A stretch of 64,000 nucleotides of DNA from an uncultured Gammaproteobacteria bacterium (lineage in GTDB: Bacteria > Pseudomonadota > Gammaproteobacteria > CAYTUN01), in NCBI GenBank assembly GCA_964441315.1, contig CAYTUN010000001.1, forward strand, positions 12,807 to 76,806. The letters run 5' to 3'. The position numbers and the translations under genes were made by a program. Shown here in pieces: positions 1 to 59,993 of this stretch (its first letter is position 1; the number at the start of each line of letters is the position of its first letter). The notes under the pieces were generated by a model that had not been told where the DNA came from, did no database searches, and saw only the letters and a list, made by a program, of their open reading frames with translations.

Positions 1-39
1 GCGCAATAACACCTAAAACTTATCCGTTTTGAGTATAGC
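1..39. repeat. right arm of a family-E element truncated by the window edge
   Basis: gcgcaataacacctaaaacttatccgttttgagtatagc matches the 50990-51019 arm. Confidence 0.6.
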
Positions 40-43
40 TAAA

Positions 44-520
44 TTATTTAACTAAACTACTCCGCAACATCCAAGCAATTTTTTCATGTTCCGTCATTAA
101 ACGCGTATACAAATCATCCGTCACTTTATCATTCGCTTCCTGCGTTAATAAGGAATGCTCGCGATATTTTTTAATTAGCAGTTCATGATCATGCAATAGT
201 GCCTTTAGCATTTCGTTAACAGAAATTAAGCTATCGCATTCGCTAATTTCAGTAAGTTTTAAAAATTCTTTAAACGAACCTGGCGCACGTTGGCCAAATT
301 GACGAATGCGTTCAGCTAATTCATCAACCGCATCGCGCAATTTCGTATATTGCTCTTCAAATGCTTCATGAAACATAAAAAAACAACCCGACTCAACATT
401 CCAATGAAAGTTTTGCGTTTTTAAATAAAGCGCGTAAGTGTCTGCCAGCAAATGCTGCAGAGAAGTCACAATTTTATCGCTGTGGTTTTTATTGATACCG
501 TTATCGACTGAAATTGACAT
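44..520 (-). CDS. dps: Dps (DNA starvation/stationary-phase protection protein, ferritin-like)
   Basis: 158 aa; ferritin-like Dps signature LYLKTQNFHWNV..FF.FHE.FEE.Y and conserved length. Confidence 0.88.
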   Translation of the reverse strand: MSISVDNGINKNHSDKIVTSLQHLLADTYALYLKTQNFHWNVESGCFFMFHEAFEEQYTKLRDAVDELAERIRQFGQRAPGSFKEFLKLTEISECDSLISVNEMLKALLHDHELLIKKYREHSLLTQEANDKVTDDLYTRLMTEHEKIAWMLRSSLVK

Positions 521-3134: not shown

Positions 3135-3570
3135 GGTTAGTTTGACGCGGGAAAGACGATTTAGTGATTGCCCTAGTTTGAAGCAATTTACTTGTTGGGT
3201 TAATGCTGTTTTTGAGGAATTGGAAGTTGAAAAAAAGTATGAGATTAATATTCATTTAGCTAATCATGAAAGTGCAAGAAAAATAAACTTTGACTATCGC
3301 AATAAGAACTATGCAACCAACATACTTTCTTTTAATTATGACCTTTTGCACCAAAAACATATTGAAGCAGGCGAATTAATTTTTTGCCCTGAAGTGATTA
3401 TGAAAGAAGCAGAAAATGAACATAAAGACTTAACCTCACATTGGATGCATTTAACCATCCACGGCACGCTACATATTTTAGGACTTGACCATGCAAACAA
3501 TAATCAAGCTGAAATAATGGAAAGCTATGAAAAAATAATCATAACCAACCTAGTAAAATTTTCTAGTTAA
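3112..3570 (+). CDS. ybeY: rRNA maturation endoribonuclease YbeY
   Basis: 152 aa; metal-binding HxxxHxxxxxH motif (HLTIHGTLHILGLDH); position after phoH. Confidence 0.9.
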   Translation: MKNLSVVKVSLTRERRFSDCPSLKQFTCWVNAVFEELEVEKKYEINIHLANHESARKINFDYRNKNYATNILSFNYDLLHQKHIEAGELIFCPEVIMKEAENEHKDLTSHWMHLTIHGTLHILGLDHANNNQAEIMESYEKIIITNLVKFSS

Positions 3571-6500
3571 AATAGCCTACTAACAGAATTGGACCTACGA
3601 TCTAGTTGTTTTTCCATAGTTGCAAAAGCTTCCTCTACTGGCCCCGAAAAAGACAAATGATTATCACTTAGCGACTTTCTTAATAGCGTTTTTAGTCGCA
3701 AAAGCGATATTTTATTATTTACCATATCACTTTTATCTAAAAAATACTGGCCAGATAAAATACTTACTAGCTCATTTTTTAATTTATAATTTCTTATCCC
3801 CGATTGGATCAACATCACCATAACTTTAGAGTAAATTAAATCACGGTATTTTTCTTCAAATCTATCTCCCAATGTGGCATTCAAATATGAAACAACTCCT
3901 TGAGCAATGATAGGTTTATTATTAGGCGGCAAAGAACAAAAATCATTCAGCCACAAGTTAAAATTTTCATAGAACTTTTGCGATCTACTGCCAGATGAAA
4001 AACTGTTTGCAATTAAAGAACTTTCGTCATCATGAGAATAAAAAAGTCTCTCCAAAAATAATGGGATAAGTTTTACGTTATTTAAAACGATATTTATTAA
4101 AGGGAGTCGTAAATTTTTTAATAATGCATCTGAATCATCAGTATCATCGTGGCCAACACACAAATTAAAAACACAAGATAAAATAACTCTTGCATTAGAC
4201 TCTAAGACCGCAGACTCATCAGCATGCAATAACTGACATAATTTTCTCTCGACCAGATTAATTAAAACTTGCAACATACTTGCTGTAAATGTTTTTCTCC
4301 GTGCGAAAACCGCTACAATTAAGGTCATATGACTTGGATCCTCGGACTTCGTCAACAACTCTACAAACAGGCTGGATCTTTTCAATATTTTTTGCTCACA
4401 AAAATTTAATAAATAATTTAAATGTAGTTGTATAATAGCAGGGGATTGATAAAAAATTTTACGCCATAAATCATCACTTATTTTTTCACCTTTAGTTTTT
4501 ATAGTAGGTGATTGCATAGTTAGCAAGAGTGTGGCAACAATTTTTTTTACTTGTGGTTTATGCTGAGTAATGAGCCAAGCATCAGTATAAATATCTACAA
4601 CGTTAGACTCGTGCTTTATCTTATATATTAAATTAGTCCGAATATTAGAATTAGTCTTTTTAGCAGCATCTAACAGCGCACTGGTTAAATAGTCTTGAGC
4701 AAAACATCTTGCTGTTGATAACAGATTTTTTATATGGGTAGAAAAAAGATTGCTAGATGCCCCATATACTCTTTCGAGCATTTTAGATTTTAATAAACGC
4801 GGAGCTTCTTTAAACATAGAATATGCCATCAAAAAAGCATAAACGTTATCATGCGGTAAAGCAGAAGCTCGGCTTTGTAGTGACAATAGCAAACCTGTTT
4901 CTACCTCACCATCATTTAGCAAAGTATGCTGTGCTTTATAAAGAAGGATCCTAGCTAGTATTATCAAGGGAAACGTTGAAACCATGTCTACTATTATTGA
5001 TTTTTGAATTAGTTGATCAAAAACTTCAAATAAAGAAGATTCATCACCCCTCAAAAATAAGTAATAAAAGTATAATGCATAATATTCTTGGTTTAGAGGG
5101 ATGGAGCTATATTTGCGAGTTGATTTTTTATCAGAGCTTTTATTTTTTTCTAATAACTGATATCCATATTCAAAAACAGGCAAGTTTTGAAAAAAAATTT
5201 GAAATAAACTCTGATGATCCACGGCATCATCTTTTAAATCTATTTGTTTATCATGCTGAATCATGTAATAAAATAACTCCACCTTCAGCTTATCAGACAA
5301 GATTTCAGCAATGGATAATTTATTAGTCACAGCAACAAATAGAAAATAATGAATTATAGTGTTTCTCAGAGGATGATCGGACCAATATTTTAATATACAC
5401 TCCAACCACTGATTCAATTTCCTTTTAAACAGATCGGGCTCACGTTTCGAAAGTTCTTCTACAAATTTAGCCACCTCGAAAAAATTGGCACGACTCATAC
5501 ATGCGTCGATCACGCATCTATCGGGTATATTATTTAATAGAATATCAGAAAGCAAAGGATAACGTATTATTTTATAGCTACTATCATCGATTGATAATAG
5601 ATAATATTTTTTTAATGAAATTAATAACTTATAAGATTTTTCAGGCTCTAACTTACTAAATATTGCATTAATAAACACGCTTCTAGATTTACTTTCCAAT
5701 TGACCTAAAAATTTATTAAAGATATTTATATCATCTTGATCATCATAATCAACACTTTCAGAAATTGAATCAGCTATTATAAACAATATGCTAAGACTTT
5801 CTTTATTTACACCCTGATCAAATTTTTTTCTTAAAAAATTTATTAGAATACATAATTGCATGTTTCTATTTTTGACAAAATCATCGTACATAACATTAAA
5901 AAAAGATCTGGCAAATACATTATTTGAATTATTATTTTGTAACGCGATTAAATTTTTAAAAAAATCTTCCAGATTAGCTGAAAATGATCGCCTAGTTGGA
6001 TTGTTATCTCTAAAGACTTGTAAAGCTTCTAAAGACTTATCATAACTAATTTCTATAAATTTGCCTGTTTTTATTTCTTCTGGACTGGTAGTTTGATTGG
6101 CATGAGCATGAACAATACTTTGATCAAATAAATTTATCGATTCAGCTATAAATTCAAATTGCCTAATGTCTACAAATCGAAATAAAGAATTCTCGAAGTT
6201 AATTCTTAAAAGATAAAATAAATAATCATAAAAAATCTCCAGAAAGTACTTTAGCAGCGGCCCAGATTCAAAAAACACTGATGGCTCGTAGCTAAAATCT
6301 CCCTCTAAAGGAATAAACCTATAAAAAATTTTGAAATCAGCTTTTTTGATTTCAAAATTTTTCCAATCTGATAGAATTTTTTCTAATGTGCCAAGACCAG
6401 ACAACAATTGACACAAATATTCAAACTTATACGCACCATCATAGCTTTTATAGTGACCAATTCTTCTTTGAAAGACATTACTACTCAAATCAATGAATCT

Positions 6501-8579
6501 ATCATAAATTTCAGATCGATGTATTTTATTTTTTTCAAATACTTCTATCCACCACAAAAAATCATTCAAATTTCTATAATCAATTTTTATAGCTTCAATT
6601 ACCTCGGACAATTTAAAAATAAAAAAATTTACTTTGATTAATTTTTTATAATCTTGATTTTTCTCTACTTGATCAAGCAGGTCATATAAAGGGTCATATA
6701 AATCTTTTAAATCTTTAAAAAATTTAAGCAAAGAAGAATATCTAGATAATCTATTTTTTTGAGCATCATCGCTAACTAAAAAATTACGAATAAGATACAA
6801 AAAACGCGTTATTCTGCTTCTAATTTTCAGTATTTTCACAACAGGCATCAATTTTTCTTCCACAAATTCTCTCGACTTACCAAGCAAATCACCTTCAATC
6901 TCTTTTAGTTTTTCTGATATAATTTTACTTTTACGTTCAGCTTCAAAATATACTTGGACTAAATGAACTACTTTTAATTCAATACCAGAAACTGGCAAGT
7001 TTACATTTTTATCAAAAATTAATTTATAAAAATTAGTAGTATCAATGAAAACTTCACCATAAGTGTCATGAGGATAAATTATTTCAAAACCCAATATTAA
7101 TATAGAATCGTATATGGCTATATCGAGAGGTATTTTCCTAACCAAACCATCAAAAAAATTATTAAAAAGTTCTTCTATTGCGCTTTGTTTTTGAATTAAT
7201 TTATCTAAAGAAGAAGCGTGGGGTCCCCTTAATAGAGATTCTACTTGTAGACAAGCCTGATCAAAAGTTAAGATATCTTTATTAGGATTTTTATCCTGGG
7301 TTTTTTGTTTATTAGCAGGAAATAAATACTCATATAAAGGGACTTTAATCCGTAAAATATCGAGATAAATTGTTTTTATCAATGAAAACAAGTAATTGTT
7401 ATTATAAAGAAATTTTCTTCCAAAAATTGATTCGGTAATAGCTAATCCTTGAAAAATCTGATAAAAATCAAAAATTATTTTTCTGGGATAGTCTATATTC
7501 AACTGCTTTAAGTCTTGATCATTTCTAAAAGCATGAATAGCAATTTTTTGTAATTGTACTGTGGCACGTCTTATTAATTTTCCCTGCTCGACTAAAATTG
7601 GCTCTATTGCCTGGATTATAGCAGGAAGTATGCGCCTGATACGGCTTATAAATATGGGGTTTTTAACCATTAAATGATTGATGCCATCTCTCTCAATTAA
7701 TAATTTTTTGAATATAGCTTTAATTGATGTTTTTTTTGATTTTTTACTTTCTGTTATTATATTTTTTGATAGTTCTTCAACTATATGCCAAAGTGATACA
7801 GAATTAATTGATTCACCATTTAAAATTTCAAAAATTTTTACATTATTATCTGCTATATTTTTTAATATTACTAATAAATTTATCTCTGATAACAACCTAG
7901 ATACATTGTTAAATTGAATAAGAAACCTGTTAATCAGAGTTAAGTTAGCAGATTTATAAGAATTTGGTATATCTTCTTGAGATGTTATTTTTCTCACTTC
8001 CTCTGTAGTAATATTGATTGATGCAGCAAACTTGTTTATTTTTTCTATATTAAAAGCAAGCCTAGTAGCCTCGCCCAAAAGGGGGCCTTTCAAAGCTTCA
8101 ATGCCCTCCATTTTAGCAAGCGTTATATTTAAAGAAGTTTGATAATTTTTTGATTCTGATATTTCAAAAAAATTTTTTTTATTTTTACGAGAGCGGGTCT
8201 GTTCTAGCTGCTCTTCATAAATGCGGAATGCTGTATAAAAAAGCATACCACTGTTATCGTAATCATAAAGCCTTAAATATACTAATTTTAATATATTTCT
8301 AATTTGTTCAAGAGTTTCTATAGTATAGCTATTAATTAGAATATCAAAACTTTTTACACTATCTTCATTTTTTCTAAAAATCCATTTTTCAATGATATCT
8401 TCAAATTCTTCAAATTCGAGCGCAGAATCATTACTCAATCCGACTTTTAACTCGTCCAGTATATGTGCAAATAATTTTTTTTTTGAAATACTGTCAAGCA
8501 CATATACAATTTCATTGACAAGATTGTCTTTTAAACTTGTTTCTAATGCTACGACATTTAATATATTACTATCTTCCAT
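3567..8579 (-). CDS. giant hypothetical protein (1670 aa), alpha-helical, no recognisable domain; candidate secreted effector
   Basis: Uninterrupted 5-kb ORF at about 30% GC against about 43% in the flanks; Asn/Lys/Ile/Leu-rich; no signal peptide, TM segment or internal repeats; Glu-containing C-terminal tail (…GPVEEAFATMEKQL…SRLF); overlaps the ybeY stop by 4 nt, convergent. Confidence 0.6.
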   Translation of the reverse strand: MEDSNILNVVALETSLKDNLVNEIVYVLDSISKKKLFAHILDELKVGLSNDSALEFEEFEDIIEKWIFRKNEDSVKSFDILINSYTIETLEQIRNILKLVYLRLYDYDNSGMLFYTAFRIYEEQLEQTRSRKNKKNFFEISESKNYQTSLNITLAKMEGIEALKGPLLGEATRLAFNIEKINKFAASINITTEEVRKITSQEDIPNSYKSANLTLINRFLIQFNNVSRLLSEINLLVILKNIADNNVKIFEILNGESINSVSLWHIVEELSKNIITESKKSKKTSIKAIFKKLLIERDGINHLMVKNPIFISRIRRILPAIIQAIEPILVEQGKLIRRATVQLQKIAIHAFRNDQDLKQLNIDYPRKIIFDFYQIFQGLAITESIFGRKFLYNNNYLFSLIKTIYLDILRIKVPLYEYLFPANKQKTQDKNPNKDILTFDQACLQVESLLRGPHASSLDKLIQKQSAIEELFNNFFDGLVRKIPLDIAIYDSILILGFEIIYPHDTYGEVFIDTTNFYKLIFDKNVNLPVSGIELKVVHLVQVYFEAERKSKIISEKLKEIEGDLLGKSREFVEEKLMPVVKILKIRSRITRFLYLIRNFLVSDDAQKNRLSRYSSLLKFFKDLKDLYDPLYDLLDQVEKNQDYKKLIKVNFFIFKLSEVIEAIKIDYRNLNDFLWWIEVFEKNKIHRSEIYDRFIDLSSNVFQRRIGHYKSYDGAYKFEYLCQLLSGLGTLEKILSDWKNFEIKKADFKIFYRFIPLEGDFSYEPSVFFESGPLLKYFLEIFYDYLFYLLRINFENSLFRFVDIRQFEFIAESINLFDQSIVHAHANQTTSPEEIKTGKFIEISYDKSLEALQVFRDNNPTRRSFSANLEDFFKNLIALQNNNSNNVFARSFFNVMYDDFVKNRNMQLCILINFLRKKFDQGVNKESLSILFIIADSISESVDYDDQDDINIFNKFLGQLESKSRSVFINAIFSKLEPEKSYKLLISLKKYYLLSIDDSSYKIIRYPLLSDILLNNIPDRCVIDACMSRANFFEVAKFVEELSKREPDLFKRKLNQWLECILKYWSDHPLRNTIIHYFLFVAVTNKLSIAEILSDKLKVELFYYMIQHDKQIDLKDDAVDHQSLFQIFFQNLPVFEYGYQLLEKNKSSDKKSTRKYSSIPLNQEYYALYFYYLFLRGDESSLFEVFDQLIQKSIIVDMVSTFPLIILARILLYKAQHTLLNDGEVETGLLLSLQSRASALPHDNVYAFLMAYSMFKEAPRLLKSKMLERVYGASSNLFSTHIKNLLSTARCFAQDYLTSALLDAAKKTNSNIRTNLIYKIKHESNVVDIYTDAWLITQHKPQVKKIVATLLLTMQSPTIKTKGEKISDDLWRKIFYQSPAIIQLHLNYLLNFCEQKILKRSSLFVELLTKSEDPSHMTLIVAVFARRKTFTASMLQVLINLVERKLCQLLHADESAVLESNARVILSCVFNLCVGHDDTDDSDALLKNLRLPLINIVLNNVKLIPLFLERLFYSHDDESSLIANSFSSGSRSQKFYENFNLWLNDFCSLPPNNKPIIAQGVVSYLNATLGDRFEEKYRDLIYSKVMVMLIQSGIRNYKLKNELVSILSGQYFLDKSDMVNNKISLLRLKTLLRKSLSDNHLSFSGPVEEAFATMEKQLDRRSNSVSRLF

Positions 8580-8672: not shown

Positions 8673-11600
8673 TTAGAAACGCACTCCAACACTTGTGTGA
8701 GTGAGTTTTATAGACTCTTCCAACAAAGAATTCAGTTCCTGCTTTATTTCATTTCCCCAAGGTTTGATTGCGATATTAGATTCAAGCTTGTTTAATTCAT
8801 CCGAATTCAAGCAGTCGAAAAAGTTAATTATTCCCCGCCTAACTTCCGATGAGAAAAAATGAGTGGGAGACATAAACCTGTTGCGTGTTGTCAGATTAGC
8901 TTTTGGTATTAAACTATCCAGCATGCAAACAAAAACATCACTTTTATTATATTTCTCGTGCCATTCATAAGTAGCAGATTTGATATAATTTATCATATCA
9001 AGAAATAAAACGTGTTTACTATTCTTATCTAAGTCGAGCTTAGAGTATTCTCCAAGCCAAAACTTGTAATCAGAAAAAAATATTCTTTTCATGAATGCAT
9101 ATTTGTCAATTTTTCCACTAGCCACTTGCTGCCATAGAAGCAGTGCAGCTGAGATATACCCTGCCTTGTCCAGGTTATACTGCGGTTTTACAAGATCATT
9201 GAAATAGTAAGTCAAAGCAGCATCAGTGCTAATCTCATGTTCTGGTTGTGACGCTGAATTAAAAAGCCGGATAACCCAATCACATATAGCATGAGATTTT
9301 TGATGATCCAGCTCTGTCTCTACTTCAGACTTTTTATCTGAAAAATTTTTTCTGGGAACCTCTTCTAAAAAAAATCTTATTATTATCAATGATTGTTCGG
9401 TATTAGCTCGTTTCAATAAATGGATAAACAGAATTGTGGTATTTAATCTAGGTTTAAACTGAAGCAATTGATAAAAACGCACCTCAATTTCTTCATTTTT
9501 CGAAAAAATATTCTCCCAATATAAATCTTGATCAATGCACGCACCTTCCGTTAAAAGCAAAGGAGATTTCATGTGTGAAAGGAATTTAGTGAGTTGACGC
9601 ACTTCTCCTTCATTGTATTTATAAAAATATAGCTGCTCCACCTGTTGATAAAACTGCCGCTTCACTTCCGACATGGCAGCGAGCATATCTGCTTTAGCTG
9701 GCGCGCGATAAGCATAATTTTTAATAGCGACCTCTAAATTATCCAGCATAAAGATATTATGATAAAAAGCTGCCGCAAAACTAATTGCGGAAATTTTATA
9801 TTGAAAAGCCTCAGGATCATCCCAAAGCCCTGCTAGTAGCTCGCCTTGTTTTTTCAAATCTAGTAAGCGCAATAATTCAACTGCCCACAGCCAATTGCCA
9901 AACTCAAACTGTAAAGTTGAAATCTTCACTGCTGCTATTTCCTGAACATTTAGCATGCTTTTGATGGCATAGCCTGCATGTGGTGTAACTAGCACCGGTT
10001 CAGTATTAATGTTTATCAGACCAATCAAATTCGAAACACATTTTTTGATTTTGATTGGATCAAATTTACTTAATACACAATAATGTAAGAAAGTACCAAG
10101 GGAATACTTTTGCAAATCTTCTTGATCAAACATTTCACTTGGGTGATAAATTCTAGCGTTAAAAATGGCCACTAATTTTAACGATTGCTTCAGCTCTTCC
10201 AGAAGTTCATCTTTTTTCAGACCAGCAATTTCAATATTTGAATCATAAAAGTCCATCAAACGTATGAATAAGGATTTGAGTTCATCATATTTGACAAATT
10301 CAATATTTTTTTCATCCAAGTGTGGCCTTAAAACTATTGAGCCTCTTAGAAGAAATGTTGCAATCGTTGTATAAAAAGGGTGCTCACGCCAAACTGAGTT
10401 GAGCCGGCTAAACCTTATTCTTAGCTCCTGAAAGTTGGCGGGCTTATGCTGGGACATTGCTTCTAATATTTCTTCCTGGGTTTCCAAACTAAACAAATAA
10501 TCAACTTCACAAAAACCTGGAAATTCTTGGCGATCAGGAAAATCTCTTGGGTAAACGACTGTTTGCCAATTCGTAGCATCTAGACGTGAATGATGGGGGC
10601 TGACTAGCACTAAAAAATGATAACGGTTTTCTGGCTTTAATAATGCAAAAACTTTATTGATAATGTATCGACTGGTAAAATTTTTAACATGCCTGAGTAA
10701 TTCATTTAACCATTTTAGATGTAATCGCCAGTTTGGCTCACGCAAATTATCAATAAAATAATCTTTTAAAGCTTTACTGAATATATCTAGCAATAAGTAA
10801 TCGTTTTTTTTACCTAAATATCTAATTAAATGCGTTAAATGAATAAAAAATTTAAAATCTTTAAGAGAATCATAAAAATAATTATATATGGGTGTATTTT
10901 CAGTTCCAGGATGTAGTGGATTTTGCAACAGGTGTAGTAAATATTGTCTACTACGTTTAAATGTGCTTGATTTGAGGTTATTTATACCCTGATTACCAGT
11001 ACGCTCTCCTATTAACGCATGTATATAACTAATCGTTTTGTCATCAGATGGTCGGCGTGAATTTAGAGCAGATTGCACTTGCTGTTCTGGTATTACTACT
11101 TTTTCAAAACATAAAGCGTCAGCAAAAAGTAATCTATGCGCCAATTTAGTAACTAAATCACGAGAGTAATTCAAAACTTCTTCAAAAAATTTTTTAAGCA
11201 GGCTTTTCTCCAAATTGTCAGTTGCCAAAATGGTTCGCCTTACAAATGTTTGCAATTGTTTAAAATCGAAACTATCTGCTGAAAATTTTAGTATATTTAC
11301 CGGCTGCATTATGTGTTCTAAAGCTGCAGCCCATAAAAGTAGATCGAGAACATGTTGTTGTCTGAATTGAAAATCACCATCCTGATTATAAACTGCCTTC
11401 AGCCGACATTCTGCAAATTTTTCCAACACTTTATGAAAATGCTCGACTGTTAATGGTTGGGACATAAAACCAAAAAAATCTTTAAATTTGATAAACTTGC
11501 TTTCCACTACACCAATCATATAGAGAGTGTTGAAAATAAGGTTGGAAAATTTTATATATCGCTGGCACTCAATATAATGCAATGTTCTTGATAACGAAAT

Positions 11601-24410: not shown

Positions 24411-24417
24411 CAATACC

Positions 24418-24441
24418 TTGCCGCAAGCGGCAAATTATTGA
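24418..24441 (+). terminator. GNRA-tetraloop hairpin (ttgccgCAAgcggcaa) downstream of cfa
   Basis: Perfect 6-bp stem with GCAA loop 8 nt after the cfa stop, followed by a T-rich tract. Confidence 0.4.
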
Positions 24442-24532
24442 AATGTAGTAAAAATGTATTATAAGTCAGTCAGTGGCAGCGAACATCAGCAACGCCATTG
24501 TTAATTTCGAAGAAATTAAAAGGAGTCTTGAA

Positions 24533-26997: not shown

Positions 26998-27030
26998 CAG
27001 GGATCAAGCTTTTGAAAAGTATTTTAGATC

Positions 27031-27212
27031 ACCCCTCATCCGGCCCGTTGGGCCACCTTCTCCCGCAAGGGGAGAAGGACAACTTCGTGAACATCTGCCG
27101 ATACAAATAAACTTAAATGCCATGAAATAAACCTTGTTATGAAAGGCTATTGAAATTTGAAGAGACCCTTCTCCCCTTGCGGGAGAAGGTGCCCGTAAGG
27201 GCGGATGAGGGG
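27031..27212. mobile_element. MITE family A copy 2
   Basis: TIRs acccctcatccggcccgttgggccaccttctcccgcaaggggagaagg / ccttctccccttgcgggagaaggtgcccgtaagggcggatgaggggt; the inverted repeat extends outward (gaaaagtattttagatc / gatctaaaatacttttc). Confidence 0.8.
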
Positions 27213-27346
27213 TGATCTAAAATACTTTTCGAAAAACCTTACCTTGATGTCAAAGCTGCATAATTTGATTAAATTTAAAAAATGTATTTTTATCACATAG
27301 AGCATAAAAAAAATCCTATTGCCAGAGATGGGTAACGTAACCTAAT

Positions 27347-28096
27347 TTACACCACCGGCGTCGTCTGCAAACGCGACAAGCCACCATCTACTGCAAACAC
27401 CTGCCCACTGATCCAATCATTCGCTGGATCCAGTAAAAATAAAATCATGCGCGCGATATCTTCAGGCTCACCTAATCTGCCTAATGGATGCGAAGCAAGC
27501 GAGATTTTGCGGGCTTTTTCGGTTTTAGTGATGTGTTCTGACATCGGTGTTTGCACCAAACCCGGGGCGACGCAGTTAAAGCGCAAATGGTTTGCGGCGT
27601 ATGTGGCGGCAGCTGCTTGCATTAAACCGATAACGCCAGCTTTAGCGGCAGCGATGGCTTCATGATAAGGCATGCCAGTCAAGCAAGCAGCGGTGGTCAT
27701 TAATACGACTGAGCCGCCTTTTTTCATCATTTGTTTGCTGGCAGAACGGACACAGGCGAATGCGGAAGTTAAATTTTGCGCGATCGTTTCTTCCCATTCT
27801 TTTAACGTTAATAAATGCGCGGGTTTTAGCATAATATTGCCGGCTAAATTTACCACACCATAAATATCTGGATATTGTTTAAATATTTCCGCAAAAAAAT
27901 TTTCGACTGCTTCGACATTGGTTGCGTCCACTGTTTTATAAGGCATGTCATATTGCTCAGCTAGTATTTTTAATTTCGCTTCATCACGCGCTGCTAAATA
28001 AACTGTTGCCCCTGCTTCACAAAGCATTTTTGTCAGTGCTGATCCGATGCCACCACTTGCACCAATAATTAAATATTGCCGATTTTGTACTGCCAT
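27347..28096 (-). CDS. short-chain dehydrogenase/reductase (SDR)
   Basis: N-terminal IIGASGGIGSA (TGxxxGxG) and SDR fold; start moved to the ATG at 28096, preceded by TAAGGAGA RBS (ORF-track start at 28174 lies inside a repeat). Confidence 0.85.
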   Translation of the reverse strand: MAVQNRQYLIIGASGGIGSALTKMLCEAGATVYLAARDEAKLKILAEQYDMPYKTVDATNVEAVENFFAEIFKQYPDIYGVVNLAGNIMLKPAHLLTLKEWEETIAQNLTSAFACVRSASKQMMKKGGSVVLMTTAACLTGMPYHEAIAAAKAGVIGLMQAAAATYAANHLRFNCVAPGLVQTPMSEHITKTEKARKISLASHPLGRLGEPEDIARMILFLLDPANDWISGQVFAVDGGLSRLQTTPVV

Positions 28097-28113: not shown

Positions 28114-28275
28114 GGGTCTGCTGACAATTGCCTTTTCTACTGCAAAAAGCAAGGGTTGGCCAAAATCGCATCAAATTTTCGTTACATAGAATAACTATGC
28201 CGCCTCAAATTTGATGCGATTTTGACTCAACCCTTACTTTTTTCGTCACGAAAAGGCAATTGTCATCAGACCCTA
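28114..28275. mobile_element. nested-palindrome MITE family C copy 1 (ggtctgctgacaattgccttttc…gcaaaaagcaagggttg…)
   Basis: About 160-bp element with outer and inner inverted repeats; lies between the photolyase stop and the SDR start and supplies the photolyase stop codon. Confidence 0.75.
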
Positions 28276-29699
28276 ATTTTTTGATAAAGCAAAAGCGCGC
28301 GTTCGCGCGCTAAGGTGTGATCGACGATTGGGGCTGGGTAATTTTCACCCAGTTTTATACCGGCTTTTTTTAATATGTCTTCGGGGGCTTCCCAGGGTTT
28401 ATGGATGTATGGCGCTGGTAGATTTTTTAATTCGGGTAGCCAGTGGCGGATGTATTTTCCTTCTTTGTCGAACTTTTCCGATTGTAATGTCGGATTAAAA
28501 ATTCGGAAATAAGGGGCGGCATCAGCGCCACTGCCAGCGACCCATTGCCAGCTGGCGGCATTATTGGCTAAATCGGCGTCGACTAAAGTGTTCCAGAAAA
28601 AATCCTGGCCGTGTCGCCAATCAATTAATAAATCCTTGATTAAAAAAGAACCGGTAATCATGCGCAGCCGATTATGCATCCAGCCAATTTGCCATAATTG
28701 ACGCATGCCGGCGTCAACGATGGGATAGCCGGTTTCACCCCGCTGCCAACACTTTAATAATTTTTCATGATGCTGCCATTGAAAATTATCAAATTCGGAG
28801 CGGAAATTTTTTTTATCTAATTCAGGGAAATGGTATAAAAGATGATAGGAAAATTCGCGCCAGATAATTTGTGATAAAAATTTATCAAAGCCATTGGCTT
28901 TAATTTTAGTTTGTTGTTTAAAATTTTCGGTGTGATACCAGACTTGTTTCGGGCTGATTTCGCCTAAATGCAAATGTGGTGATAATTGCGAAACGCCATT
29001 TTCGCCAGGGAAATCGCGCATATTGCCATAATCAGCGGCATGGTTTTCTAAAAATGCTTGCAATTTTTTTAGCGCGGCAGTTTCACCAATTTGCCAATAG
29101 CTCTCAAATGCTTTTGCCCAATTGAGTTTAGTCGGCAGTAATTGCCAATCCTGTAATTGCTCGGATGCAATTGAATTAATAGTGTTAATTTTACGTGGCG
29201 CTGGCAATGGATTTAATTCGGGTAAATTGATCAAGCAATTTTTGTAAAAAGGTGTATAAACTTTAAAAGAACCCCCTAAGGAATTTTGCACTTTCCAGGG
29301 TTCAAATAATAAAGCGGTTTGAAAGGACTTAGCTTGGCAACCGGTTTTTTCTAGCTGCTTTTTAATTTCGGTATCACGCGCTATCGCATAGGGTTCATAG
29401 CAACGGTTCCAATAAACCGCATCGGCTTGAGTTTCTTGAAGGATTTTTTCTAATACCGTCAAACAATTTCCCGAGCGCAAAATTAATTTGGCATTTTTTT
29501 TTTCAAGCGCTTCATTTAATGAATTTAAGCTATGATGCAACCACCACTGTTGCGCTTCTCCCATCGGCCAGGGATTATTTTTATCACGTTCATAAATATA
29601 AAGCGGCACAATTTTTTCGGCAGCATCTATTGCCGCTGCTAAAGCAGGATTATCTGCTAAACGCAGATCTTGACGGAACCAAACGATGATTGTCTTCAT
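28266..29699 (-). CDS. phrB: deoxyribodipyrimidine photolyase (cryptochrome/photolyase family)
   Basis: N-terminal photolyase domain (IVWFRQDLRLADNPAL); C-terminal FAD-binding domain with WREF and GWMHNRLRM motifs; start at the internal ATG 29699. Confidence 0.9.
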   Translation of the reverse strand: MKTIIVWFRQDLRLADNPALAAAIDAAEKIVPLYIYERDKNNPWPMGEAQQWWLHHSLNSLNEALEKKNAKLILRSGNCLTVLEKILQETQADAVYWNRCYEPYAIARDTEIKKQLEKTGCQAKSFQTALLFEPWKVQNSLGGSFKVYTPFYKNCLINLPELNPLPAPRKINTINSIASEQLQDWQLLPTKLNWAKAFESYWQIGETAALKKLQAFLENHAADYGNMRDFPGENGVSQLSPHLHLGEISPKQVWYHTENFKQQTKIKANGFDKFLSQIIWREFSYHLLYHFPELDKKNFRSEFDNFQWQHHEKLLKCWQRGETGYPIVDAGMRQLWQIGWMHNRLRMITGSFLIKDLLIDWRHGQDFFWNTLVDADLANNAASWQWVAGSGADAAPYFRIFNPTLQSEKFDKEGKYIRHWLPELKNLPAPYIHKPWEAPEDILKKAGIKLGENYPAPIVDHTLARERALLLYQKIRV

Positions 29700-29924
29700 A
29701 AGCATTAGACTTCCATTTAATTTTTTCAGCGGAAACGCTGAAAACACTATACCAATGATGTTTTAGTGATATGAAAAATTCAAATAGTTGGTAAAAACAA
29801 TATCTTAACAAACGCCAAGCCCTATGTCCCGCCTAGTTCTACAAGCACTCACTTTTGCAGTGAAAACCGCTGAAAATGATTAATTTTCATAATGAGATAT
29901 AATTCAGCAACAGTGCCATTCGTT

Positions 29925-30032
29925 GTCAGGAGATTGCCGCGCTTTGCTCGCAATGACAAATGAGTGGCTTTTCGCTCGTAATGACAAGGCTTCCTTTTTG
30001 TCATTGCGAGCGAAGCGCGGCAATCTCCTGAC
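29925..30032. repeat. palindromic element family B copy 1 (gtcaggagattgccgcg…gtcattgcgagcg…cggcaatctcctgac)
   Basis: About 108-bp imperfect palindrome immediately upstream of blc. Confidence 0.8.
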
Positions 30033-30075
30033 TAAAACTAGCAGCAGATTATTTACAAACTCCAATGGAAAAAAC

Positions 30076-49390: not shown

Positions 49391-49503
49391 TCAGGAGATT
49401 GCCGCGTCCGCCTTCGGCTCCCTCGCAATGACAAGCGGGTGGCATTGTTGCCCATTTTTTGTCATTGCGAGGGAGCCGAAGGCGAACGTGGCAATCTCCT
49501 GAC
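49391..49503. repeat. palindromic element family B copy 3 (stem carries compensatory substitutions)
   Basis: tcaggagattgccgcgtccgccttcggctccctcgcaatgaca…tgtcattgcgagggagccgaaggcgaacgtggcaatctcctga. Confidence 0.8.
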
Positions 49504-49603: not shown

Positions 49604-50245
49604 ATGAACAAAAAAATCATCAGTGAAATTTTCAAACGCCTCAGTGAAGCAAACCCAGAACCGAAATCGGAATTAATTTATGCCAGCGATTTTGAATTAT
49701 TAATCGCTGTGATTTTATCAGCGCAAGCTACTGACAAGCAGGTCAATATTGTGACGCAAAAATTATTTCCAGTTGCTAACACACCAAAAAAAATTCTGGA
49801 ATTAGGCGAAAAAGGCTTGAAAAATCTGATCCGTTCGATTGGGCTTTATAATAATAAAGCAAAAAATATTATTGCTTGCTGCAAAATGTTGTTAGATAAA
49901 TTTGATGGCAAAGTGCCTGACAATAGCCATGATTTACAGCAATTGCCTGGCGTGGGACGCAAAACGGCTAATGTGGTGATGAATGTTGCTTTTGGCGGAG
50001 AAGTGATCGCAGTCGATACGCATATTTTTCGTTTGGGTAATCGCATTGGCATTGCCAAAGGCAAAAATCCTTTACAAGTTGAACAAAATTTAATGAAAGC
50101 AGTTCCCAAAAAATATTTAAAATATGCGCACCATTGGTTAATTCTACACGGCCGCTATATTTGCAAAGCGCAAACTCCACAATGCATGAAATGTACGATT
50201 AATGATTTGTGCGAGTATCCTTATAAAAAATTGTTGAATAACTAA
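49604..50245 (+). CDS. nth: endonuclease III
   Basis: HhH-GPD domain (LPGVGRKTANVV), catalytic Lys/Asp, C-terminal [4Fe-4S] Cx6Cx2Cx5C. Confidence 0.95.
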   Translation: MNKKIISEIFKRLSEANPEPKSELIYASDFELLIAVILSAQATDKQVNIVTQKLFPVANTPKKILELGEKGLKNLIRSIGLYNNKAKNIIACCKMLLDKFDGKVPDNSHDLQQLPGVGRKTANVVMNVAFGGEVIAVDTHIFRLGNRIGIAKGKNPLQVEQNLMKAVPKKYLKYAHHWLILHGRYICKAQTPQCMKCTINDLCEYPYKKLLNN

Positions 50246-50400
50246 GGTCTGTTTACAATTGCCTTTTCGTGACGAAAAAAGCAAGAATTGAGTCAAAATC
50301 GCATCAATTTGAGGCAGCATAGTCATTCACTGTAACGAAAATTTGATGCGATTTTGGCCAATCCTTGCTTTTTGCAGTAGGAAAGGCAATGAGACCCTGG
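50246..50400. mobile_element. MITE family C copy 3, abutting family A copy 4
   Basis: aggtctgtttacaattgccttttcgtgacgaaaaaagcaagaattgagtcaaaatcgcatcaa…. Confidence 0.75.
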
Positions 50401-50407
50401 TTTTATC

Positions 50408-50591
50408 ACCCCTCATCCGCCCTATCGGGCACCTTCTCCCACAAGGGGAGAAGGCCTTCTCATCAATATTCACTAGCTTTTCATAATTAGGACCATTTCA
50501 TTACATTGAAGTTTATTCTATCGGCAGATGTAGCCGAAAATTGTCCTTCTCCCCTTGTGGGAGAAGGTGCCCGATAGGGCGGATGAGGGGT
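50408..50591. mobile_element. MITE family A copy 4 (interior inverted relative to copies 1-3)
   Basis: Same TIRs; interior …cttttcataattagg…atcggcagatgtagcc. Confidence 0.8.
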
Positions 50592-50752
50592 AATAAAATA
50601 CCCCGCCGCAAGCGGCGTGGTATTTCCTGTTTATAATTTCGCTCGACACGAAGTAAATTCGTTGTCTACGACCTTCGGTGCGAATTGCATTCTCCCCTTT
50701 GGAAACCCCATCGCGCTTTGGAACCTCGCCGCAAGCGGCGGGGTATTAAAAT
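50586..50752. repeat. family D element bounded by GCAA-tetraloop hairpins (ccccgccgcaagcggcg … cgccgcaagcggcggggtattaaaattt)
   Basis: Related copy at 46996-47040 (caccgcaagcagcggggtattaaattt) and a hairpin at 24418-24441. Confidence 0.55.
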
Positions 50753-50826
50753 TTAATAAATAAACCCCATGGCAGGCAACGGGTAATTGCAAGTTTAAAA
50801 ATAATTTTTAAAAACTCATGCCGTAT

Positions 50827-51019
50827 AATCAAACTATACTCAAAACGGATAGGTTTTAGGTGTTATTGCGCCGAGTGATGCGTGAGATTGTCACGTTTTG
50901 ATTGAGCAAAAGTGCAGGAATAGTTGTTCTATTTCGAGCTTTTGCGATTGAAAAACGTGACAAGATCGCGCCTCAATCGGATGCAAGAACACCTAAAACC
51001 TATCCGTTTTGGGTATAAA
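50827..51019. mobile_element. MITE family E (TIR tatactcaaaacggataggttttaggtgtt / aacacctaaaacctatccgttttgggtata)
   Basis: 30-bp TIRs around about 130 bp that contain an inner inverted repeat (cacgtttt…aaaacgtgac); a second right arm is at 1-39 and an arm-like fragment at 16461-16490. Confidence 0.7.
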
Positions 51020-51075
51020 AGTAGGTTAAATTAATTTGTAATATCATCACAATAAATTAATCTGGAGAACTCTCA

Positions 51076-51504
51076 ATGTTCAACCAAGACCGCAGTCAGT
51101 TGCGTCAGTTTTTTTTTGATTGTTGGAAAAAATATCAACAGCAGCAGGCGCTTGAGCCGTTGGAAAAGCAGATTATTGCGGTGATTTTAGATCATCCGGA
51201 ATATATTTCTTTATTTGAGCAATCGGATGAAAATTTATTAGACAAGGATTTTCATCTGGATGAAAAAGAAAATCCGTTTTTGCATTTAGGACTGCATTTA
51301 AGTTTGCGTGAGCAAATTAGTACTAATCGACCGAATGGAATTAAAACAGTTTATGAAAAACTTTTTTTAAAAATGGGATCAAAATTAGCAGTTGAGCATA
51401 TTATGCTGGATGTATTACGAGATTGTTTATGGGAATTTCGAAGTTCGGGGAAATTTCCAAGTGATGAGATTTATTTGAGGCGGTTGCAGTTGTTAGTGGA
51501 ATGA
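51076..51504 (+). CDS. DUF1841-family protein
   Basis: 142 aa; conserved N-terminal R.QLRQFFFD.W.KY pattern of DUF1841. Confidence 0.7.
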   Translation: MFNQDRSQLRQFFFDCWKKYQQQQALEPLEKQIIAVILDHPEYISLFEQSDENLLDKDFHLDEKENPFLHLGLHLSLREQISTNRPNGIKTVYEKLFLKMGSKLAVEHIMLDVLRDCLWEFRSSGKFPSDEIYLRRLQLLVE

Positions 51505-54392: not shown

Positions 54393-54501
54393 AAATACTC
54401 ATATCTCATTAGAGCCTGTTTAAAATTGCTACTCAACCATCCTTGGCCGGTTAGATCCCGCCCTTCAGGCGGGATGACGGGATCGCGGGATGAAAAACAA
54501 A

Positions 54502-56190: not shown

Positions 56191-56201
56191 AATTTTTTAA
56201 A

Positions 56202-57110: not shown

Positions 57111-57345
57111 GATAAGTCCTTAGATTTAAATTTTTTCAATACTATAAGCTGAAAAGATTAAAATAATGTTAATAATGCAATAGCTTACGCTACAAGATAA
57201 TACTACTAGAGCATGCGATTGAATTGCTTTTTACACTGAAAAAAGCAACTATTAACGCTTGTTTACCAATGCCTTTCGCCACGAAAAAGCATTGGTAAGC
57301 AAGTGCTAAGCAGCATAACCCGTTGATCAAGATAAGGAAAATTGT

Positions 57346-59741: not shown

Positions 59742-59773
59742 TGAATGTGTTAAAGATTATTGCTATTTTGATC

Positions 59774-59955
59774 ACCCCTCATCCGCCCTTACGGGCACCT
59801 TCTCCCACAAGGGGAGAAGGGACTTTTCAAAGTTCAGTAGCTTTTCATAATAAGGCTTATTTTATAGCATTAAACTTTATTCCAGCAGCAGATGTGCCCA
59901 TCAGTTGGCCTTCTCCCCTTGTGGGAGAAGTTGCCCGTAAGGGCGGATGAGGGGT
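59774..59955. mobile_element. MITE family A copy 5
   Basis: Same TIRs; interior similar to copy 4. Confidence 0.8.
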
Positions 59956-59993
59956 AGTCAATAGAATTTTCCTAAAACCACACATTTGCTAAG

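Follow-up and report, generated by a model that had tools for sequence, protein, structure and literature searches.

A TA-flanked palindromic repeat family, very probably a MITE, at the 3' end of a photolyase gene in an uncultured gammaproteobacterium

Introduction

The deoxyribodipyrimidine photolyase gene (phr) of an uncultured gammaproteobacterium ends inside a palindromic repeat, and further copies of this repeat lie elsewhere in the 64-kb stretch of DNA that was analysed here as a whole (the window). This raises two questions: what kind of element is the repeat, which is called family C in the following, and did its insertion give the photolyase its present C-terminus and stop codon? Bacterial MITEs are 100-200 bp long and have TIRs, 5'-TA-3' termini and long stem-loops, and fusions of such elements to gene ends have been described (PMC2229807, PMC5896051). 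The design of family C agrees with these published properties, thus supporting the reading as a MITE. We consider it very probable that family C is a non-autonomous DNA transposon of this kind.

The homology searches with photolyase, Dxs and SDR found a close relative of the host for Dxs only. One relative in a Logan assembly has a Dxs protein that is 92% identical and DNA that is 81-85% identical; otherwise, the best Dxs matches are 64-68% identical, and the named ones belong to uncultured Gammaproteobacteria, except for one Methylocaldum entry. An LbtU-type porin and, among the SDR matches, a Legionellales SDR (57% identical) point to a host that is probably Legionellales-like. Coxiella burnetii, which the repeats had brought to mind by their style, was ruled out as the host, since the host proteins are only 57-68% identical to anything outside their own lineage. 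Two adjacent ORFs on the minus strand (3567-8579 and 8673-13694), encoding 1670 and 1673 aa, have no Pfam match and lie in a stretch with 27-33% GC, compared with 39% for the whole window; these genes may encode effector-like proteins or have been acquired horizontally.

Results

Six family C loci in the window

Repeat finding, together with BLAST searches of the window in which the copies served as queries, places family C at six loci in 64 kb: three full copies (C1, C2 and C3), a small derivative (C4), a solo end and a degenerate relative. At three or fewer mismatches, the 18-mer TIR has eight matches in the 64-kb window, against 0.08 expected from shuffles. C1 (28112-28275, plus strand) lies between the photolyase and SDR genes and consists of a 160-bp palindromic body (28114-28273) with a TA on either side; its left TIR (28114-28132, plus strand) reads GGGTCTGCTGACAATTGCC, and its right TIR (28255-28273, minus strand) reads GGGTCTGATGACAATTGCC. 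C2 (32998-33161, minus strand), which has the TIRs nearest to the consensus, is located between the convergent sdaA and CDP-alcohol phosphatidyltransferase genes; P0122 was set aside as a cluster artefact unrelated to sdaA. C3 (50243-50399, minus strand) lacks 7 bp of its right TIR. C2 is opposite in orientation to C1, and C3 has the same orientation as C2; once oriented, the three full copies are 88-91% identical in pairwise comparison.

The small derivative C4 (56135-56191, plus strand) lies downstream of the SOD gene. It is 57 bp long and corresponds to a full copy in which positions ~42-122 have been deleted between the short repeats AAAAGCAA and AAAGGCAA. Since the deletion joins these two repeats, C4 is a microhomology deletion derivative. 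The solo end (54410-54430, plus strand), missing from the earlier note on this DNA, reads TA followed by GAGCCTGTTTAAAATTGCT. The degenerate relative (57207-57308, plus strand) is 102 bp long, TA-flanked and ~70-76% identical, and contains two tandem small hairpins. As to setting, convergent genes surround four of the six loci, a fifth is co-directional (phr to SDR), and the sixth, the degenerate relative, lies in the divergent region upstream of pgi. The copies, their TIRs and the nested palindrome bear out the earlier note, which had described a MITE family at several loci, with inverted repeats both outside and inside and with shortened forms. The consensus TIR quoted there fits C2, C4 and the left end of C3, but both C1 TIRs differ from it at three positions.

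Ends, hairpin and flanks

A full element measures 160 bp plus a TA on each side and has TIRs of ~18-20 bp with the consensus GGGCCTGTTTACAATTGC; in C1, the TIRs at both ends read GGGTCTG[C/A]TGACAATTGCC. The interior of a full copy is itself an imperfect palindrome, and the entire unit thereby becomes one long hairpin. Indeed, the transcribed strand of C1 folds as RNA at -101 kcal/mol, compared with -39.8 +/- 4.1 kcal/mol in shuffles (z = -14.9). Among only three full copies, compensatory double changes are found at 5 of 68 pairs; this number is reached by 3 of 500 column shuffles, and slid-register controls give 0-1 compensatory pairs. The two arms of family C therefore co-vary. In C1, one and the same T-to-G change is found in both arms; with three copies compared, it might go back to a variant master copy or to correction of one arm by the other. 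Rfam 15 has no gathering-level match in the window, where only generic long-hairpin matches (plant miRNA precursor) far below threshold were obtained.

Of the 11 family C ends in the window, 10 have a TA, all but the damaged one of C3. The flank to the right of the TA is the same, ATTT, at three copies (28276-28279, 33162-33165 and 56192-56195) despite their differing orientation; a preferred target, for instance AAAT followed by TA, may be behind this, or chance in AT-rich DNA. A 3-bp target duplication (TNA or TTA) was rejected because the family C flanks do not fit it. Stop codons occur in all six frames of the full copies.

Small palindromes of this kind might also belong to another class of repeat. 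C4 and the two hairpins at 57207-57308 look REP-sized, and most family C copies are extragenic, as would suit a REP/BIME-type palindrome of a RAYT (Y1) transposase, or an IS200/IS605-type element, instead of a MITE with TIRs recognised by a DDE transposase. However, the family C ends read TTAGGG, CTAGAG or CTAAGG, with GTAG at one C1 end only, and no conserved GTAG or CGTC tag was found at the ends of any copy in the window. The element sizes of 57-164 bp fall within the generic limit for bacterial MITEs (below ~500 bp), with no transposase gene inside, and exceed the 20-40 bp typical of REP (PMC3733652). The long true TIRs, the TA flanks and the termini that are common to unrelated interiors (see below) are, moreover, what marks elements whose ends are recognised by a DDE transposase. 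A REP/BIME or IS200/IS605 origin is thus very unlikely, and we keep to the reading of family C as a TIR-bearing MITE.

The 3' end of the photolyase gene

The photolyase gene (28266-29705, minus strand; Pfam PF00875 and PF03441) ends in ...YQKIRV and a stop. The next gene encodes a 249-aa SDR oxidoreductase (27347-28096, minus strand), and its Shine-Dalgarno sequence AAGGAG and ATG come directly after C1. The final photolyase codons are ATT (28277-28275), AGG (28274-28272), GTC (28271-28269) and TGA (28268-28266), followed by a second TGA; both in-frame TGA codons lie within the right TIR of C1. The TA at 28274-28275 has one base in the Ile codon and one in the Arg codon, and everything beyond it is element sequence. 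The element contributes the TGA, the whole Val codon and two of the three Arg bases. The Pfam FAD domain ends at Gln-489, ahead of the element-derived residues; the catalytic domain of the photolyase is therefore untouched by C1.

The best photolyase homologues are only 57% identical, and most of the named ones are alphaproteobacterial; 0 of the 120 best have a C-terminus reading ...IRV. When the C1 body and one TA are removed in silico, the protein ends in ...YQKITKEK and is followed by TAA, one base (A) and the ATG of the SDR gene, and the SDR Shine-Dalgarno AAGGAG falls within the last photolyase codons. Counted after the conserved Tyr, this restored tail has seven residues, which is the modal length (50 of 120 homologues), and the present tail has five, a length found in 4 of 120. 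Removal of both TAs also leaves an in-frame stop (...YQKI), with a tail of three residues that is seen in 5 of 120 homologues. The predicted empty phr site that yields ...YQKITKEK is CAAAAAATTACTAAGGAGAAATAAAATG, with one TA kept, and CAAAAAATCTAAGGAG is the version without TA duplication. The TA at family C ends could be the element's own terminal bases and not a duplication; at C1, the tail length after virtual excision favours a duplication without proving it.

The proposal that C1 rewrote the last residues of the photolyase and supplies its stop thus stands, considering the missing ...IRV among the homologues and the normal-length tail and tight phr-SDR junction obtained on excision. The donation of a stop is expected and not remarkable, because the element has stops in every frame. 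The early TGA is created by C1-specific TIR bases; with the consensus TIR, the photolyase tail would be 13 residues longer (...IRACLQLPFRDEKSKG before the stop). On a rather unlikely reading, a short photolyase tail was selected for and one arm was then corrected after the other; this would account for the T-to-G change, which creates the in-frame TGA, in both C1 arms.

Two further observations concern this gene. A terminator-like GC hairpin with a T-run (AGCGCGCGAACGCGCGCT TTTGCTTT) lies at 28294-28311 on the minus strand, within the last 15 photolyase codons (...ARERALLLY). The photolyase product (28266-29747, three starts tried) is absent from a 15-billion-protein collection in which the products of the neighbouring genes are present; in the source record, the gene might lack an annotation or be marked as a pseudogene, perhaps on account of the terminal repeat.

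Regulatory signals and other genes touched by family C

Lying between two co-directional genes, C1 had been suggested to act as a terminator or promoter. Neither role finds a signal here: there is no U-tract 3' of the C1 hairpin on the transcribed strand, and there is no sigma-70-like hexamer pair inside C1. A different possibility is that the C1 hairpin, perhaps on top of its MITE origin, has secondarily taken on a regulatory task at the RNA level between phr and SDR. By analogy, it might serve as an RNase III processing site, as an mRNA stabiliser or as a device uncoupling the two genes. The hairpin is very stable and lies within a co-directional transcript, the family C arms co-vary, and the ribosome-binding site of the SDR gene is left unpaired in the C1 fold, just 3' of the stem. 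Elsewhere, Correia and ERIC hairpins are cut by RNase III and RNase E (PMC10969869, PMC2229807), and by analogy with them RNase processing of the C1 hairpin is possible. However, the same structure is present at loci with quite different gene arrangements, and the covariation of the arms is explained equally well by variant master copies or by correction between palindrome arms; the missing U-tract and promoter hexamers count against co-option as well. We regard it as unlikely that C1 has acquired such a role.

The end of a second gene is set by family C. The endonuclease III gene (nth; 49604-50245, plus strand; Pfam HhH-GPD) has a TAA stop at 50243-50245, which is composed of the flanking TA and the first base of C3; the element thus supplies the third base of the stop codon. 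At the SOD gene, C4 lies downstream of the gene's own terminator-like hairpin, and C4 was rejected as the SOD terminator because this upstream hairpin makes such a role unnecessary.

Family A neighbours and other small repeats

A second repeat, family A, is an element of 200-320 bp with five copies in the window and ends reading ...TTTTGATCACCCCTCATCCGCCC: A1 (16495-16815), A2 (27024-27222), A3 (33183-33393), A4 (50400-50600) and A5 (59766-59964). A1 holds 19-bp tandem repeats (16558-16691). A5 is missing from the orthologous intergenic region of the 81-85%-identical relative, which measures 75 bp there compared with 253 bp in the window (Logan SRR27067940, contig L048, 2355-2429). This means that small repeats of this lineage are gained or lost on a short timescale.

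A family A copy stands beside two of the three full C copies, and the earlier note had raised the possibility that C and A are mobilised as a composite unit or have a specific target site in common. A3 is a neighbour of C2, and not a part of family C, at a distance of 21 nt (33162-33182); A4 abuts C3 with a spacer of 0-1 nt (50399/50400). These values replace the 8-30 nt given before, and the two junctions have no sequence in common. Whereas C2 and C3 point the same way, A3 and A4 are opposite to each other. In addition, no A copy adjoins C1, C4 or the other C remnants, and three of the five family A copies (A1, A2 and A5) have no adjacent C copy. The co-occurrence of C and A in the window does not clearly exceed chance. 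The hypergeometric P for two shared C-A intergenic regions is 0.03-0.34, varying with the count of permissive regions and with the inclusion of derivatives: it is 0.028 with full C copies only and all 46 intergenic intervals, but 0.06-0.34 with realistic numbers of permissive intervals or with all C copies counted. Bunching of unrelated MITE families is already known; the pneumococcal BOX, RUP and SPRITE elements cluster in tolerant intergenic regions (PMC10969869). Composite mobilisation or a common specific target is thus highly improbable, and we conclude that the C-A pairs are independent insertions into the same permissive spots. A2 and C1, on either side of the SDR gene, belong to different families, occupy separate intergenic regions and show no sign of being functionally linked.

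Small repeats are unusually abundant in this genome. Palindromes of a family B (TCAGGAGATTGCCGCG...CTCGCAATGACAA) are found at 29914-30043, 40516-40617 and 49391-49502; they apparently resemble repeats that are widespread in other proteobacteria and may be of the REP-core type described for Coxiella QMITE2. At 50825-51017 lies another palindrome, ~190 bp long and with ends TATACTCAAAACGGATAGGTTTTAGGTGTTATTGCGC, of which a half copy stands at the start of the window (1-47), and short GC hairpins (CCGCCGCAAGCGGCGG) in 50246-51076 recur at 24415-24452.

Termini of family C beyond the window

A 19-mer common to all four good copies was scanned against 185,579 species-representative genomes, a collection that does not contain the host genome. 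It gave 43 single chance matches and no real copy; these chance matches aside, no represented species carries that exact 19-mer. The TIR scan of JGI metagenomes returned 28 loci, most of which are chance matches in coding sequence (one conserved gene appears six times). Four contigs, however, carry small elements, of 143 bp (L054), ~320 bp (L055), ~84 bp (L068) and ~93 bp (L072), with the same TAGGGCCTGTTTACAA termini and with interiors unrelated to family C; a TA is present at seven of their eight ends. All four are bacterial contigs of 39-44% GC, and one of the elements adjoins a ribosomal-protein operon. Shared ends with unrelated interiors are the pattern expected when one transposase family mobilises several non-autonomous elements, and the shared termini in the four contigs imply what would be a common transposase.

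The window, the 28 metagenome loci, one viral locus and plasmids yielded no transposase gene with matching ends, and a Pfam screen of the genes on L054 and L072 showed no transposase. Searches of plasmids, viral contigs and the literature with the TIR string gave nothing relevant. The terminus TA followed by GGGCCTGTTTACAA on at least five small elements with unrelated interiors, in uncultured bacteria of ~40% GC, taken together with the arm covariation, might instead be read as the trace of an undescribed, widespread lineage of TA-targeting transposases, whose substrates are perhaps hairpins with a single-strand or cruciform intermediate, or as hairpins that are kept for an RNA-level function. 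We think this reading quite unlikely.

Two Logan contigs of the same organism, which encode an identical SOD protein (L044, SRR10912418; L045, SRR10912416), end 34 nt into C4; independent assemblies thus break inside this copy, as expected for a multi-copy repeat. No orthologous locus, filled or empty, was recovered for a family C copy; the contigs of the relative (L046 and L048) stop short of the C sites.

Discussion

We propose that family C is very probably a MITE that inserts at TA. A transposase encoded elsewhere would bind both ends of the element and integrate it at a TA in AT-rich DNA, thus duplicating the TA. IS630/Tc1-mariner elements and the IS427 group of IS5 insert at TA and duplicate it in this way. 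An IS630-like and an IS5/IS427-group parent appear equally possible by analogy, as both give the 2-bp TA duplication. The full copies are ~10% diverged, and present-day activity of the family does not follow from them. Copies would persist where the harm is small: for the most part between genes that converge, or right at the 3' end of a gene. As the full copies have stops in six frames, an insertion into the final codons would replace the tail of the protein and supply a new stop. In the photolyase, an ancestral end that was probably ...YQKITKEK, overlapping the SDR ribosome-binding site, would have become ...YQKIRV, and the C1 insertion would have pushed phr and SDR 162 bp apart; at nth, the junction with C3 would have formed the stop codon. 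The photolyase insertion would have been selectively neutral.

By design, the nearest known systems are Correia/NEMIS, with its full and internally deleted TA-flanked forms, and RUP. The Correia/NEMIS elements of Neisseria are likewise small and TA-flanked, with TIRs and a unit-long stem-loop, and lie beside or at gene ends; full-length and internally deleted classes coexist, and the 155-bp Correia form has stops in all frames (PMC2229807, PMC10969869). The host differs, however, and the IHF-binding motif WATCAANNNNTTR is absent from both strands of every family C copy, as is a sigma-70-like promoter from C1; this comparison is one of design and not of sequence alignment. RUP of Streptococcus pneumoniae is a non-coding element on the ~100-bp scale that has TIRs, inserts at TA and clusters with other repeats (PMC2229807, PMC10969869). 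It also has stops in all frames and is mobilised by IS630-Spn1. The cognate IS of RUP is known from TIR similarity, whereas that of family C was not found, and the host phylum and the sequence are different.

The closest parallel to stop donation comes from Coxiella burnetii, where several MITE families, in full and small versions, are likewise present in a small gammaproteobacterial genome (PMC5896051). QMITE1 and QMITE2 overlap the 3' ends of functional genes, many of them for DNA repair, and donate a few residues and a stop (PMC5896051, Table 2); the stop donation at photolyase and nth matches this description of QMITE1 and QMITE2 by Wachter et al. (PMC5896051). However, QMITE2 is marked by variable direct repeats of 7-11 bp and by a GTAG REP core that IS1111 targets, and family C has only TA and no conserved GTAG tag. 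Peptides donated by QMITE1 in Coxiella are absent from the window. The identity of family C with QMITE1 or QMITE2 was rejected on host divergence, the missing QMITE1 peptides and the direct-repeat pattern; the families are set apart by description and not by alignment. The ERIC/IRU and YPAL elements of enterobacteria and Yersinia are imperfect palindromes of 127-168 bp, with TA termini in ERIC and none in YPAL, and are co-transcribed and sometimes co-translated with upstream genes (PMC2229807). Their perfectly paired TIRs are much shorter (7 bp), and sequence kinship with family C is not evident. Having no IHF site, no 7-11-bp repeats and no GTAG tag, and living in a different host, family C is outside these named families. 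It is best filed as a further TA-flanked palindromic MITE that resembles Correia, RUP and QMITE in design, not in sequence.

The donation of a stop by a MITE is an ordinary and well-known event, and the understanding of bacterial MITEs is unchanged by it. The finding is of use mainly for annotation: in this lineage, repeat insertions determine the 3' ends and stops of genes (photolyase and nth), and assemblies from short reads are interrupted at the repeats. The shared termini in other metagenomes provide a handle for finding the transposase. In the photolyase case, a MITE has uncoupled a tight two-gene junction and swapped the tail of the protein, leaving the catalytic domain intact.
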